From Escherichia coli (GTDB lineage Bacteria > Pseudomonadota > Gammaproteobacteria > Enterobacterales > Enterobacteriaceae), in the NCBI RefSeq assembly GCF_011045215.1, contig NZ_CP049201.1: a DNA stretch of 64,000 nt; one strand, written 5' to 3'. The stretch's first letter is position 1, and each line of letters opens with the position of its first letter. Shown one piece after another: positions 4,349 to 11,126 of this stretch. The translations under genes and the position numbers were made by a program. The notes under the pieces are model-generated. The model did not search any database. It was not told the DNA's origin and saw only the letters and a list, made by a program, of their open reading frames with translations.

Positions 4349-7030
4349 TTAGCCCAACAGGCCTGACAGAAACGTTCCCAACTTCCCTTCTATATCACTG
4401 TCTATAGTACGTAATCTTAGCAATGGCAGGCCACATTTCTTCAGTATACTGTTTTTAAGTTCATCACGTTCAGCCTGAACACTGGTCAGATGATAACCTC
4501 CATCCACTTCAATAACCCCTAACGGAGCCTTCCCGACCTTATAGTAAACAACAAAGTCACAACTGGCACGGTTACGCATGAATAACTGTTCACGGTGTGT
4601 AAAATCCCCCCGCTCCAGCAACACCAACTGATTCAGCGCTATTTGTGAATGAAACATCATACTCCGATAACTATCCTGCGACAGGATATCCCGCAACAGG
4701 CAGGCCACAATCTGTTCTGACTTAAAGTGTGAATCATTTGAATTCAATCTACTATTCAGTCGTTCCAGTGATTTGTCATACTCACTGTACAGCAAATCAA
4801 ATGCTGATATGACCGGGCTCTCGAAAATCTCTCCGTCATCAGCGTAGTATTTGATGTAACGAATCAGCGCCGCAATATGTCCAGCGTGGCGTTCAAATAC
4901 ATCATTACCAGTCACCAGCGTAAATTTATTTCGGGCCCTTGAAACAGCGACATTCACCAGTTCAGGATTATCAACAAACGCGATGTTCCGACTTTGCTGG
5001 CTGCTGCGTTTCTTATCCAGCACAGTGGAAAACACAATTTCATCGCACTCCCGTCCCTGAAATTTATGCACCGTCGATTTCACAAAATCAGCAGGCAGCA
5101 CTTTTTCAGCCAGATTAACCTGTGCATTATATGGGGCAATGTATCCCCTGCTACTTTCTTCATCCCAGTAATGACCTTCCAGAGATTCAAGCTCCCTGAG
5201 ATTTGAAAAATTACGGGTATGGTTTCCTTTTGCCGTGATGACCAGAGATAATGAGGCTTCACCGGAATCAACCGTTAGCGGTATCAGAGCATTATCATAA
5301 AACTGCTTATTACAAAATTGAATGATTTTAGGATGACAGCGATAATGCTCTTTAAGAAGAGTTACTGGCACCATGTTCCTGAACAACATACAAACCGAAT
5401 CAAGTAGACTATATTTCTCACAATTATAGTATTCTGCCGGTGGAGATGGGCTGTTCGGGAGTAATACAGGAACATGTGGAAGTTGCTTACGATCCCCTAC
5501 AACGATTACATTACGGGCACATCCCAGTCCCAGAATGCCCGGAATAATATCCTGCTGTGAGGCTTCATCAATAATCACATAATCAAGAAGGGCACCCTTA
5601 CCGATTGAGTTAATAATCGAATGCGTGCTGCTACCAATAACCGGAAAACGCTTTATAAAATGGTCAAATTCATCCCTGTATGCTTCTGTCGAGAATGAAT
5701 TTCTTGTTGAAATATTTCTTCGCAGATGTTGCTTTAAATAAAGCATAGACCATGATATCAGGCGTTCCAGTAAAATTTTAAAATCAGATTCCTTTAATAC
5801 TTTCTCACATTCATTCAGAGAAAATTGCTTTTCCCGGATAGCTTTTTCATAATAAGAAAGCTGAAGAGAAGTAAATAGTGCCTGCCTTCTCTCCGGAATC
5901 ATCAATGGTTTGACTTTCAGTATCCTGAAGTTTAACAATAAATCAATTCTGTTTCTGAATCCAATCCGCCTGTCAGAAAGGTAATGAATATAAGCCATCA
6001 GGTCGGTTGTTTTTCGTGAGGAAAACCGATATTTGTGAGAAAAAAACTCCTCCGGTCGAAGATTCTGACTCTGCCATTGTTGCAGGTATTTATACTCAAT
6101 ACTCAGTTCATCAATTTCTGCTTTTAACGAAGCAACCTGGTTGATGGCATTCAGGTGTTTTTTCACTTGTTGAAGTACATCATCAATCGCATTTGCAGAC
6201 GGTGAATCAGATAAGGCTTCCTCAGAACGCGAAATCGACGTTGAAAAAAACTGTTGCCTGTTCTCCGTACTCCCCAGTCGTGCCACCACATATCCCAGTT
6301 GCTGTTTGTCCATCTTTTCATAAACATTACTGACAGCTGAGTTATTATTGGACAAAATTGCCACTGTTTTATTCTGAATTAATATATTAGCAACAATATT
6401 GAGTATAGTCTGTGTTTTACCTGTTCCAGGTGGTCCTTCAATAACTGAAATCTGTGAGGAAAATGCCCGTTCGACAGCCAGCAACTGACTTTCATTAAGA
6501 CCAAACGGAAAAATCAAACTCCATGGCGAATCACGTTTTTTACTCTGTCCTGAACAGTATGCATGCAAGGCGGTATCCGGATGAGGAACTATTTTCTTTA
6601 TCTGCCTAAGGATATTCTCATCGATATTTCGGTTATTACCACGAGCATAAAAAATACGTTCATTAGCCACCCTACACAAGTAATTAAACACGGCATGCTC
6701 TGTAAATGCTGAACACTGTTGAAAGTCAAGGCCGGTCGTTTTCATAATGTAGGGTCGTTCACCCTCGCGGTAATAAACAGCAGCATATTTATCACCATAT
6801 ATAATAACCCGTTCAGCCCGGGATGTTACAGCGTCCCCTTTCCTTTCGAGGAAAACATTTCGCAAATTTACAGTTGGCGTTATCTGACATACAGAAAGCG
6901 GACGAGTATATTTTTTCCCGCTGCGAAAATGACAGGTCAGCATAACCTCTCCGTCGTCATTTCCAGCCCACAGCGTCCAGTCGGTAATTTTATGAGTCTT
7001 ATTTTCACCGTCAACACAAATCGTGACCAT
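4349..7030 (-). CDS. SF1B (Upf1/DNA2-like) helicase fused to a C-terminal Vsr/DUF559/DUF2726-like endonuclease domain, with an uncharacterised ~180-aa N-terminal domain
   Basis: 893 aa; Walker A GPPGTGKT, Walker B IIDEASQ, VVGDRKQLP, HYRCHP, SRAR helicase motifs; C-terminal IEVDGGYH...ERDELK...GLPLLRL resembles PD-(D/E)xK Vsr-like nuclease folds. Confidence 0.75.
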   Translation of the reverse strand: MVTICVDGENKTHKITDWTLWAGNDDGEVMLTCHFRSGKKYTRPLSVCQITPTVNLRNVFLERKGDAVTSRAERVIIYGDKYAAVYYREGERPYIMKTTGLDFQQCSAFTEHAVFNYLCRVANERIFYARGNNRNIDENILRQIKKIVPHPDTALHAYCSGQSKKRDSPWSLIFPFGLNESQLLAVERAFSSQISVIEGPPGTGKTQTILNIVANILIQNKTVAILSNNNSAVSNVYEKMDKQQLGYVVARLGSTENRQQFFSTSISRSEEALSDSPSANAIDDVLQQVKKHLNAINQVASLKAEIDELSIEYKYLQQWQSQNLRPEEFFSHKYRFSSRKTTDLMAYIHYLSDRRIGFRNRIDLLLNFRILKVKPLMIPERRQALFTSLQLSYYEKAIREKQFSLNECEKVLKESDFKILLERLISWSMLYLKQHLRRNISTRNSFSTEAYRDEFDHFIKRFPVIGSSTHSIINSIGKGALLDYVIIDEASQQDIIPGILGLGCARNVIVVGDRKQLPHVPVLLPNSPSPPAEYYNCEKYSLLDSVCMLFRNMVPVTLLKEHYRCHPKIIQFCNKQFYDNALIPLTVDSGEASLSLVITAKGNHTRNFSNLRELESLEGHYWDEESSRGYIAPYNAQVNLAEKVLPADFVKSTVHKFQGRECDEIVFSTVLDKKRSSQQSRNIAFVDNPELVNVAVSRARNKFTLVTGNDVFERHAGHIAALIRYIKYYADDGEIFESPVISAFDLLYSEYDKSLERLNSRLNSNDSHFKSEQIVACLLRDILSQDSYRSMMFHSQIALNQLVLLERGDFTHREQLFMRNRASCDFVVYYKVGKAPLGVIEVDGGYHLTSVQAERDELKNSILKKCGLPLLRLRTIDSDIEGKLGTFLSGLLG

Positions 7031-9299: not shown

Positions 9300-11126
9300 T
9301 TATGCAAAATCCTCAAGGTGGCGGCTGATACTGTTTTCACGGTAACAGGTCACCAGTAATTCACGGGTTGCCCGGGTAAACGCCACATAAAGCACCGGAA
9401 TCACTTCAGACTCATCCGCTGCACCAGAGTGAACGAAAGACGCATTGATAACTGCCACATACGGGAACTCCAGCCCCTTGCTGCTCTGGTACGTCAGTAA
9501 ATGCACCACATCCTTACGTCGCGAGTATGTCTTCTTACCTTCACTGTCAAAGCAGGTGGCAAAAGGTATCCCGCGTTGTGTCATAACCTCTTTCAGTTGT
9601 TTCACTGAAAACTCTGCCGGACACAGAACAGCCATATCACTCCAGTGACCGCACAGGGCATGGCGTTTCTCCAGCCAGTCTGCAACCTGTCTGGCTTCAT
9701 CACGTTCAGAAGCACAACGCAGGATTTCCGGCTCTGTGCCCTCTTCACCACCCGCCTGTGGCTGAACGAGTGGTATTTCACGGTTCTGATGTTTTTCAAA
9801 ATACTCGCGGGAGAATGCATAAGCAAAGTGCAGAATGCGTTTCGGATTACGGTAATTGACCGGCAGGACAGAAGTGCGTCCCTGCGCCTGAATCCCCACA
9901 CTGGCCAGAGAAAAGTTCAGGGCCCGCTCCCGTCGGTAAATGGACTGGGCATCATCGTACATCAGGAGCAGTGAACGGGATGCGTTATCAAACAGACGGG
10001 CAATCAGGGCCAGCCAGCGACTGTCAAAATCATGCCCTTCATCCACCAGTACAGCATCATATCCGGTTTGGGTGATTTTTCCGCTGTTCACGGCCTCTTC
10101 CAATGCACTGAAGCATTTCTCAGGATATTCTTTTCTGTCTGCCGTCACCTGAATACCGTGGCGTTTTGCCATTGAGGCACACCAGCTGTGAAAATGAGAT
10201 ACCGTAACCCGTGACCTCAGCCCTCTGGCCTCAATGCATTCCCGCAGATAGCTGGCCAGGGTAATGTTGTAGCACAACACCAGAATCTTTCCGGACGTGG
10301 TTTCAGCCAGGTAAAGGCAACGGAACAAAAGAATCATGGTTTTTCCGGAACCGGCCACACCATGAATGACACGATGCCCGTCACCTATATTTCTGGCCAG
10401 AATCTCCTGCTGAATATCCATGATTTTGATTTGTGAGTTCTGTTTCACGGTCACTTCAGGAAACAGATGGGCGCGCAGAATATCTCTCATCCGGGGTGTC
10501 ACCCGGGTTCTGAACCCCGTGGTAAACATCCCGGCAATTTTTTGCCGGAATACCTCAGGTAAAACAGACTGCGTCATTTCATCCTGACAGATTGTCTGTG
10601 CTGAAGGAAAAATCTTTTCCACCGCATTCTCATCATTCCCTGTCAGTGCCTTCAGTTGCTGACGGGTAATGCGGGTAAACACCACACCATACGCCCAGGC
10701 CAGGTTCAGCCGTCCCTTATACTGACCGTCATTCTGCCGTAAGCACGGGTCAGCAGGTAAGGCATTAACCGTATCACAGGCATAACGACGAACCTGTACC
10801 AGCGGATTTATTTCTGATTTCAGAAGACCGTCGGTTTCCAGTGTAACCTGCTCCTGATTTGCTTTACGTAATGTGGATACAGTCCAGTCCTTGACCTCCA
10901 GAAATACCAGCCCGTTATCCGGGTCAATAATGACAAAATCCGGATGTCGGTTTTTCCGTCCCACCGGGATATCGTACCAGACAAGGCAGTCATCATTCAG
11001 AAAGCTCTCCAGTCGTGAAGCCACCCTCCTCTCCCCTGGCGTCATTCTCTCCTCAGTGGACGCTGATATATTTATCAGTTTCGCCATAACATACTCATGC
11101 TCCAGTAAAATCATAACCGTCGACAT
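9300..11126 (-). CDS. NERD-like nuclease domain fused to UvrD/PcrA-like SF1A helicase
   Basis: 608 aa; N-terminal HPDFVIIDPDNGLVFLEVKDW (NERD/PD-(D/E)xK-like); Walker A GVAGSGKT; Walker B VLVDEGHD; C-terminal YQSSKGLEFPYV (UvrD_C-like). Confidence 0.75.
   Translation of the reverse strand: MSTVMILLEHEYVMAKLINISASTEERMTPGERRVASRLESFLNDDCLVWYDIPVGRKNRHPDFVIIDPDNGLVFLEVKDWTVSTLRKANQEQVTLETDGLLKSEINPLVQVRRYACDTVNALPADPCLRQNDGQYKGRLNLAWAYGVVFTRITRQQLKALTGNDENAVEKIFPSAQTICQDEMTQSVLPEVFRQKIAGMFTTGFRTRVTPRMRDILRAHLFPEVTVKQNSQIKIMDIQQEILARNIGDGHRVIHGVAGSGKTMILLFRCLYLAETTSGKILVLCYNITLASYLRECIEARGLRSRVTVSHFHSWCASMAKRHGIQVTADRKEYPEKCFSALEEAVNSGKITQTGYDAVLVDEGHDFDSRWLALIARLFDNASRSLLLMYDDAQSIYRRERALNFSLASVGIQAQGRTSVLPVNYRNPKRILHFAYAFSREYFEKHQNREIPLVQPQAGGEEGTEPEILRCASERDEARQVADWLEKRHALCGHWSDMAVLCPAEFSVKQLKEVMTQRGIPFATCFDSEGKKTYSRRKDVVHLLTYQSSKGLEFPYVAVINASFVHSGAADESEVIPVLYVAFTRATRELLVTCYRENSISRHLEDFA

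Follow-up and report, generated by a model that had tools for sequence, protein, structure and literature searches.

Introduction

Several bacterial defense proteins join a superfamily 1 (SF1) helicase motor and a nuclease in a single polypeptide. In Mokosh type II, MkoC carries an Upf1-like (COG1112) SF1B helicase followed by a C-terminal PLD nuclease, and defense requires both the ATPase and the nuclease motifs (10.1101/2022.05.11.491447). Hhe, a protein of about 1800 to 1900 residues, combines HEPN/DUF4011, a helicase and a Vsr endonuclease (Gao 2020); its helicase and nuclease motifs are both needed, and defense relies on the nuclease residue E1731 (10.1101/2022.06.16.496414). Nhi is a one-gene nuclease-helicase proposed to act by nicking and unwinding phage DNA (PMC12904381), and the related Nhi-like protein carries a NERD domain (PMC10952713). 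The NERD+UvrD family C3a187 is a candidate, defined solely by its location beside type III CRISPR-cas cassettes, as observed in three genomes (Shah et al. 2018; PMC6546367). Here, we analyze two genes of comparable design in a 64,000-nucleotide stretch of Escherichia coli (contig NZ_CP049201.1 of assembly GCF_011045215.1), called the window hereafter: one, at 4349-7030, encodes an 893-residue protein with an Upf1-like helicase and a DUF2726 nuclease domain, and the other, at 9300-11126, encodes a fusion of a NERD nuclease domain with a UvrD-type helicase (NERD-UvrD).

An earlier, sequence-only reading of the window had described the two genes as one defense-island-like cluster. Our analysis points to two mutually independent single-gene modules, whose adjacency would be historical rather than functional and would stem from the assembly of a mosaic island. 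Both appear to be variants of the single-polypeptide helicase-nuclease, neither of them in an experimentally validated, named defense system. For each gene separately, a role in antiphage defense or restriction is plausible, and we lean somewhat toward it.

Results

Two intact helicase-nuclease genes

The two open reading frames (ORFs) lie on the minus strand, and the architectures first ascribed to them were borne out by Pfam. Their parts are as follows.

4349..7030, minus strand: gene of the 893-residue protein, with an N-terminal domain, an Upf1/DNA2-type SF1B helicase and a C-terminal DUF2726 nuclease domain
6506..7030, minus strand: N-terminal domain (residues 1-175), predicted to be β-rich, with two small barrels followed by three helices
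4910..6499, minus strand: SF1B (Upf1/IGHMBP2/SETX/DNA2-like) helicase core (residues 178-707), with Walker A K205 and DEASQ 488-492
5711..6196, minus strand: long helical insertion in RecA1 (residues 279-440), 1C-like or a coiled coil
4394..4579, minus strand: DUF2726 nuclease domain (Vsr/DUF559-clade, PD-(D/E)xK-like; residues 818-879), with D825, E841, D843 and H847
7045..7074, minus strand: match to a sigma-70-like promoter (TTAACA-18-GATAAT), from a consensus scan only, 15 nt upstream of the ATG of the 893-residue protein gene
9300..11087, minus strand: NERD-UvrD nuclease-helicase gene, likely 595 residues from M14; the 608-residue ORF reaches 11126
10764..11039, minus strand: NERD PD-(D/E)xK nuclease domain (ORF residues 30-121), with catalytic D63, E77 and K79
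9303..10436, minus strand: compact SF1A UvrD/Rep/PcrA-type helicase core (ORF residues 231-608), with Walker A K262 and DEGHD 362-366

In the 893-residue protein, Pfam recognizes AAA_11 (residues 178-518, E 1.3e-21), AAA_12 (residues 549-707, E 6e-14) and DUF2726 (residues 818-879, E 8.8e-12), and assigns nothing to residues 1-177. The profile of the helicase core matches IGHMBP2, UPF1, DNA2 and SEN1 in the PDB, while Foldseek with the protein returns SETX, IGHMBP2 and UPF1. By sequence and fold, the motor falls in the SF1B group of Upf1, IGHMBP2, SETX and DNA2. The AlphaFold2 (AF2) model of the whole protein, in which the RecA2 region is poorly predicted, was used for fold class only; it places helices at residues 279-322 and 338-439 of the insertion, a region that aligns without large gaps in all homologues. 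DUF2726 is classed among the PD-(D/E)xK nucleases, where it shares one row with Vsr and DUF559 and also holds a separate row of its own (PMC3424549). The motifs GTGK205T, D488-E489-ASQ and D825...E841-V-D843-G-G-Y-H847 are all present. Across homologues, the catalytic motifs are invariant or nearly so, the four DUF2726 residues being invariant in 21 of them. Searched alone, the N-terminal 178 residues match no NCBIfam or PADLOC family. In AFDB50, this domain is found again only at the N terminus of helicases similar to this one. Several have a length of about 900 residues or carry a DUF2726 annotation, and they come from Proteobacteria, Bacillota, Bacteroidota and one spirochaete.

Within the 608-residue NERD-UvrD ORF, Pfam finds NERD (residues 30-121, E 2.9e-10), UvrD-helicase, AAA_19, UvrD_C and UvrD_C_2, and detects none of the secretion-adaptor domains PAAR, VgrG, Hcp, MIX and DUF4123. 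Its motifs (P-D63-F...E77-V-K79, Walker A GSGK262T and Walker B D362-E363) are likewise complete. The NERD catalytic residues are kept in 36/36 (D), 34/36 (E) and 32/36 (K) sequences, and the helicase core, with invariant motifs, matches PcrA, UvrD and Rep in the PDB. The true start is most likely M14 (MAKLIN..., nt 11087), a position that agrees with the consensus of the family, with the PADLOC alignment and with the orthologue in Cedecea. The NCBI annotation in E. coli is shorter still, a 581-residue product, and labels the fusion "3'-5' exonuclease".

Comparison with described systems

PADLOC matched the 893-residue protein to MkoA (E 5.5e-44) and MkoC (E 4.2e-39), as well as to PDC-S37 and Hhe, in each case through the helicase part only. 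NCBIfam likewise returned the IGHMBP2 family, ProA, Hhe and RecD2, all far below cut-off and over the motor alone. Like MkoC, the 893-residue protein is a single polypeptide in which an Upf1-like SF1B helicase precedes a C-terminal nuclease. However, its nuclease is DUF2726/Vsr-like, and Pfam finds no PLD domain in it. The Mokosh matches are confined to the helicase part of the profiles (positions 615-1100 of 1112). The best MkoC stretch aligns residues 557-721 with positions 771-958 of a 1136-position profile, and there is no whole-protein match; the N-terminal domain is unrelated, and the helical insertion is an extra of the 893-residue protein. With Hhe, the protein shares an Upf1-type helicase, followed in the same chain by a putative Vsr-superfamily endonuclease; the D...ExDGxxH motif and the classification row common to DUF2726 and Vsr speak for this kinship, but the domain does not match the Hhe profile itself. 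The protein lacks DUF4011 and is about half as long, and the NCBIfam Hhe model scores 76.7 bits against a cut-off of 2000, over residues 181-296 only. When the C-terminal 171 residues were searched alone, NCBIfam returned nothing, no Mokosh or Hhe profile matched, and a marginal DpdF hit (E 0.014) was the sole PADLOC match. The 893-residue protein therefore resembles a Mokosh type II or Hhe protein with its nuclease swapped, and it belongs to no named family.

For NERD-UvrD, the closest described relative is C3a187, to which it matches end to end (residues 14-607 against positions 1-556 of 559, E 2.7e-141), so that it can be regarded as a member of this candidate family. No Cas families were found among the window ORFs submitted to PADLOC and NCBIfam, a subset of all its ORFs, and cas families are not among the top Pfam matches of 148 genes flanking NERD-UvrD relatives. 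Nhi and Nhi-like proteins share with NERD-UvrD the succession of an N-terminal PD-(D/E)xK-type nuclease and an SF1 helicase in one protein. However, their helicase is of the DUF2075/Schlafen type (SLFN-g3), whereas that of NERD-UvrD is of the UvrD type. The PADLOC Nhi profile matches only residues 237-267, around Walker A (E 3.6e-5), and SLFN-g3 matches weakly (E 0.0035). GajB of Gabija and the DRT-associated RTasHel and RTasNERD-Hel are also compact UvrD-type defense helicases, with partial matches of 1e-21 to 1e-15. They work together with GajA or with a reverse transcriptase, whereas NERD-UvrD has no such partner here or in 80 related loci, and GajA has no match among its neighbors.

Classical enzymes such as DNA2, AddA and RecB also combine an SF1 motor with a PD-(D/E)xK nuclease, yet the two proteins described here differ from them in domain order, accessory domains, family scores and patchy distribution. 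The sequence-only reading had named placement of both proteins in housekeeping repair families, with conserved non-island neighborhoods, among the outcomes that would overturn it; in the profile searches, all curated housekeeping helicase models, RecB included, score far below cut-off for both proteins. For NERD-UvrD, the scores against their cut-offs are 63.6/911 for PcrA, 55.9/965 for UvrD, 55/951 for Rep and 56.7/419 for HelD; for the 893-residue protein, they are 147/349 for TIGR00376, 45/500 for RecD2 and 34/310 for RecD. Since the defining features of Mokosh, Hhe, Nhi and Gabija were looked for and did not hold, neither protein seems to be a member of these systems. The view that neither could be assigned to a named system thus stands as far as validated systems go and falls for NERD-UvrD with respect to C3a187, which it matches over its full length.

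Distribution, selection and neighborhoods

Among 5426 complete E. coli genomes, NERD-UvrD is at least 80% complete (our definition of full length) in 613 and the 893-residue protein gene in 641, about 11-12% each; both are contiguous in only 67. In O157:H7, they lie 2.4 Mb apart. With each gene occurring alone in about 600 genomes and adjoining the other in so few, they do not form a unit, contrary to the single cluster first proposed. In O157:H7 and enteropathogenic E. coli (EPEC), a frameshift breaks the 893-residue protein gene into parts of 722 and 171 residues, as in O157:H7 Xuzhou21 (locus L008:12001-14681), and NERD-UvrD is truncated by IS66, leaving both candidates inactive there. Both genes are kept under purifying selection, as indicated by a ratio of nonsynonymous to synonymous substitution rates (dN/dS) of about 0.1: 0.08-0.18 for NERD-UvrD and 0.10-0.12 for the 893-residue protein gene, the latter against Serratia and Edwardsiella, at informative distances. 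In 50,697 phage genomes, NERD-UvrD is essentially absent and the 893-residue protein gene nearly so. Plasmids hold 15 of the 1093 places matching NERD-UvrD in complete E. coli genomes, while plasmid matches of the 893-residue protein gene are rare and mostly on megaplasmids.

Full-length homologues of the 893-residue protein (888-911 residues, 56-83% identity) occur across Proteobacteria, in Enterobacterales, Vibrionaceae, Pseudomonas, Halomonadaceae, Burkholderiaceae and Methylophilaceae; between beta- and gammaproteobacteria, identity is 56-60% over 900 residues. Such similarity of full-length homologues in groups so scattered points to horizontal spread. Ten loci of relatives offer ten different settings, with no partner gene conserved across them; several have HipA with a resolvase and IS21, RES-Xre, PIN or a STAND NTPase nearby, and in one genus the gene is next to uvrC. 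A search around the gene for repeats on both sides, as expected of a discrete cassette, gave only short ones at chance level. In Herminiimonas and Photobacterium, a homologue immediately follows the 3' end of guaA; in Paraburkholderia, it is close to guaA, and in Nitrincola, it falls within the guaA/tadA/mltF/purL region (the guaA-region set comprises L098:8115-12715, L094:8351-12718, L003:1-12706 and L091). Such placements suggest that the guaA region is a recurrent insertion hotspot.

In E. coli, the 893-residue protein gene usually adjoins ibrA and ibrB, which encode PAPS-reductase-like and ParB-like proteins; IbrA has only a weak BrxP-like match. These genes are deleted in the window (3004-4130 compared with L001:9233-12001), where about 470 bp of unmatched sequence stands instead. 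Given this deletion and the lack of ibrA/ibrB beside distant homologues in other genera, we rejected IbrA/IbrB as a partner.

Grouped at 50% identity, the NERD-UvrD family forms 568 clusters (E ≤ 1e-30), most of them of about 600 residues. We surveyed its neighbors in 80 loci, taken from genomes of beta- and gammaproteobacteria and of cyanobacteria and from one Caldilineaceae (Chloroflexota) metagenome-assembled genome. All-against-all clustering of the 1287 ORFs in these loci yielded no conserved neighbor. The flanks include SoFic-like Fic proteins at 7/80 loci and type I HsdR at 5/80, and a few loci have HipA, YhcG/DUF1016 nucleases or Schlafen-type helicases nearby; the Pfam sample of 148 flanking genes had no control set. 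The neighborhood survey called for by the sequence-only reading bore it out in part: some conflict genes lie nearby, but there is no conserved partner and housekeeping flanks are common. Conflict genes seem commoner than expected, the apparent enrichment being modest, and we consider the neighborhood evidence moderate rather than strong.

A shared position in type VI secretion clusters

The genes between and beside the two candidates trace back largely to a type VI secretion system (T6SS).

7657-8874, minus strand: vasL/tagA-type gene of 405 residues with an ImpA_N N terminus, a truncated relic
8929-9234, minus strand: 101-residue ORF, tail of a T6SS cluster and not part of the helicase gene
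11223..11798, minus strand: gene of an Ail/Lom/OmpX-family outer-membrane protein (NCBIfam and E. coli annotation), between the tssE relic and NERD-UvrD
11993..12326, minus strand: frameshifted tssE relic, matched in two frames at 55-59% identity by tblastn with the TssE of E. coli locus L005

Homologues of the 405-residue ORF have 450-456 residues and carry ImpA_N and VasL (PF06812 and PF12486). By tblastn, the window copy covers residues 1-426 of 456, with a stop after residue 405. These domains and the synteny with loci L005, L010 and L099 identify it as a T6SS VasL/TagA gene, truncated here. The intact E. coli cluster of L005 runs tssF-tssG-tssJ-vgrG-...-tssE-small ORF-vasL without a helicase gene. 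Its tail is 95% identical in nucleotides to window positions 9234-7680, and the 101-residue ORF matches, at 93% identity, the segment that directly precedes its vasL. This ORF is frameshifted in several E. coli strains, and the tssE relic is annotated as "TssE frameshifted" in E. coli records. In four E. coli genomes examined, the vasL beside NERD-UvrD is fragmented, frameshifted or interrupted by an insertion sequence (IS), while the NERD-UvrD ORF is intact. From the identity to the L005 tail, the vasL truncation and the tssE relic, we take the 101- and 405-residue ORFs to be T6SS leftovers. The operon at 7657-11126 that had been suggested for cloning accordingly finds no support, its two downstream ORFs being the tail of a T6SS cluster whose intact E. 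coli form in L005 lacks the helicase gene and whose vasL is decaying.

Outside E. coli, the two closest relatives of NERD-UvrD belong to Cedecea neteri, at 65% identity, and to assembly GCA_025215155.1, at 59%. In both, the gene lies in an intact T6SS cluster, in the co-directional and tightly packed order tssE-(x)-NERD/UvrD-vasL (L010:9279-13190 and L099:8971-13357, respectively); in the window (9300-12326) and in E. coli relatives, it lies between the tssE and vasL relics. The Ail/Lom-family gene is missing from the Cedecea and GCA_025215155.1 clusters and therefore looks like a separate insertion. Between the cluster types, the core proteins have diverged to 63% (TssF), 53% (TssG) and 73% (TssE) identity. 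That NERD-UvrD has diverged to a similar extent (59-65% at the amino acid level) suggests long co-residence with the cluster. No T6SS gene occurs within 10 kb of NERD-UvrD in the 79 more distant loci. We read the gene as a long-term resident of the variable end of the T6SS cluster rather than as a part of the secretion system.

Between L010 and L099, identity drops along the cluster, from TssF (96%), TssG (85%) and TssE (84%) to NERD-UvrD (64%) and VasL (48%). Either a recombination boundary or rapid evolution of the end of the cluster could account for this gradient.

The surrounding island

The first 48 kb or so of the window form a mosaic island rich in pseudogenes and IS elements. The mobile setting described earlier, with IS elements and a contact-dependent inhibition (CDI) locus, is confirmed.

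1497-2912: IS4 transposase gene in the mobile island; the insertion truncates the next gene
12712-13314: orphan toxin-tip-like ORFs in the surroundings of the CDI locus
13568-25096: CDI-type locus
48822-50006: SetB-family sugar efflux transporter gene, just before the 50-60 kb stretch

The CDI locus holds a 3078-residue CdiA-like ORF, a 579-residue POTRA/ShlB-type transporter and a 175-residue ORF at the place where an E. coli relative has an annotated toxin-activating acyltransferase. GTPase and RadC genes, which are typical of CP4-like islands, lie inside the island as well. The 50-60 kb stretch is E. coli chromosome, with yicL, nlpA and the ETT2-linked eilA/eip and identity to E. coli of up to 99.9%. 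An Rfam scan of 2900-13500 found no RNA families. The 541-residue island ORF at 32517-34142 (minus strand) matched nothing in NCBIfam or PADLOC. A version of the same island in E. coli ESY001 (locus L090, 2230-8054) carries complete Shango SngA, SngB and SngC (PADLOC E 1e-100 to 1e-278), about 6 kb from its NERD-UvrD gene.

Discussion

For both proteins, we infer nuclease and helicase activity, the direction of movement, whether DNA or RNA is the target, what triggers them and an antiphage role. For NERD-UvrD, we propose that the SF1A motor would translocate on or unwind DNA and that the N-terminal NERD domain would cut that DNA. By analogy with UvrD, PcrA and Rep, the motor is expected to move 3'-5' on single-stranded DNA. 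It might feed DNA to the PD-(D/E)xK domain or load at breaks made by this domain, giving a machine that nicks and unwinds, as in Nhi, or degrades. In the 893-residue protein, the SF1B motor would act on single-stranded nucleic acid, DNA or RNA, with an expected 5'-3' polarity by analogy with Upf1 and DNA2. Its C-terminal Vsr-like DUF2726 nuclease would be the effector and its N-terminal β-barrel domain a candidate sensor of the substrate or trigger, a logic that would be that of Mokosh type II and Hhe. Both genes are accessory and horizontally spread, and the likeliest role of each would be to restrict invading nucleic acid of phage or plasmid origin, like Nhi, Mokosh type II and Hhe.

In favor of a defense role, the closest profile matches are defense proteins: C3a187, GajB, RTasHel and RTasNERD-Hel for NERD-UvrD, and the helicase cores of MkoA, MkoC, PDC-S37, Hhe and ProA for the 893-residue protein. 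The intact and conserved motifs, the purifying selection, the patchy occurrence as solo genes, the survival of NERD-UvrD beside a decaying vasL, the conflict genes in the flanks, Shango in an E. coli version of the island, the low scores of housekeeping models, the near absence from phages and the precedent of Mokosh type II, Hhe and Nhi favor it too. Several points weigh against it. C3a187 is itself a guilt-by-association candidate from three genomes, and literature searches by NERD+UvrD and C3a187 returned no functional study of the NERD-UvrD family. The portions of the literature available through searches by accession and by DUF2726 likewise held no functional study of the 893-residue family or of a DUF2726-helicase. 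The AF2 model of the whole 893-residue protein is mediocre (pLDDT 65). Housekeeping or metabolic genes are common in the flanks of both families (glnS, miaA, sbcC, guaA, uvrC and ccm), NERD-UvrD relatives also having chemoreceptor genes beside them, and PADLOC recognized no further system among the submitted ORFs of the window's island. Finally, the fixed slot of the enterobacterial NERD-UvrD clade in T6SS clusters hints at another role.

This last point leads to the idea that enterobacterial NERD-UvrD is tied to the T6SS and, rather than defending against phage, repairs or processes DNA after attack by a rival's nuclease effectors, or serves as unconventional cargo. The order tssE-NERD/UvrD-vasL in Cedecea neteri and GCA_025215155.1, its relics in the window and other E. 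coli and the similar divergence of NERD-UvrD and T6SS core genes speak for such a tie. However, intact E. coli clusters do without the gene (tssE-small ORF-vasL), and NERD-UvrD remains intact in 613 genomes while the surrounding E. coli T6SS is degraded. With the 79 distant relatives also devoid of T6SS genes within 10 kb and with no secretion-adaptor domain detected, we consider this role improbable. We give equally little credence to a composite view in which the enterobacterial gene is an accessory of a T6SS subtype, countering T6SS DNase attack or processing DNA during contact-dependent competition, and the 893-residue family is, separately, a phylum-spanning one-protein immune system with the N-terminal domain as its sensor. 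A function of one or both proteins as accessory enzymes of DNA repair, recombination, replication restart or island maintenance is unlikely, if less so. UvrD-type and DNA2-type nuclease-helicases are classical repair enzymes, and homologues do sit among housekeeping genes, the 893-residue family directly following the 3' end of guaA in two genera and adjoining uvrC in a single one, and NERD-UvrD near sbcC, glnS and miaA. Yet a strain-variable presence in 11-12% of E. coli and an identity of 56-60% between beta- and gammaproteobacteria, suggestive of horizontal transfer, are atypical of core repair, and the scores of curated repair helicases are 5-20 times below cut-off. Moreover, the 3' end of guaA looks like an insertion hotspot with other cargo (RES-Xre, IS elements, a resolvase and HipA).

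On another reading, both genes are passengers in decay, carried by a degenerate island and without current function. This would fit the many pseudogenes and IS elements of the island and the broken copies of O157:H7, the one gene frameshifted and the other cut by IS66. However, the copies in the window are whole and keep every motif, dN/dS is around 0.1 and the full-length architecture is conserved across phyla, which makes mere decay very improbable. We give least weight of all to one co-operating defense cluster spanning 4349-11126, with NERD-UvrD, the small protein and the ImpA_N protein in an operon at 7657-11126, and regard it as contradicted by these results. The shared strand, the close spacing and the occurrence of the whole arrangement in 67 E. 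coli genomes favor it; against it stand the independent distributions of the two genes, the 95% identity of the vasL/small-ORF pair to a helicase-free T6SS end, a vasL that is truncated here and pseudogenized elsewhere and the lack of conserved partners in 80 loci.

Beyond the plausible antiphage role of each gene, two features stand out: the place that enterobacterial NERD-UvrD genes hold in T6SS clusters, and the N-terminal domain of the 893-residue family, which is private to it and spans phyla. The conserved slot connects secretion loci with nucleic-acid enzymes in a modest but puzzling way. Should one of the two genes restrict phage, it would add a further one-protein helicase-nuclease immune module, and for NERD-UvrD this would be the first function of a common NERD fusion. 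The 893-residue family is large, spans several phyla and has a fixed architecture but no name; the exchange of its nuclease relative to Mokosh type II and Hhe could show what an Upf1-like motor senses.

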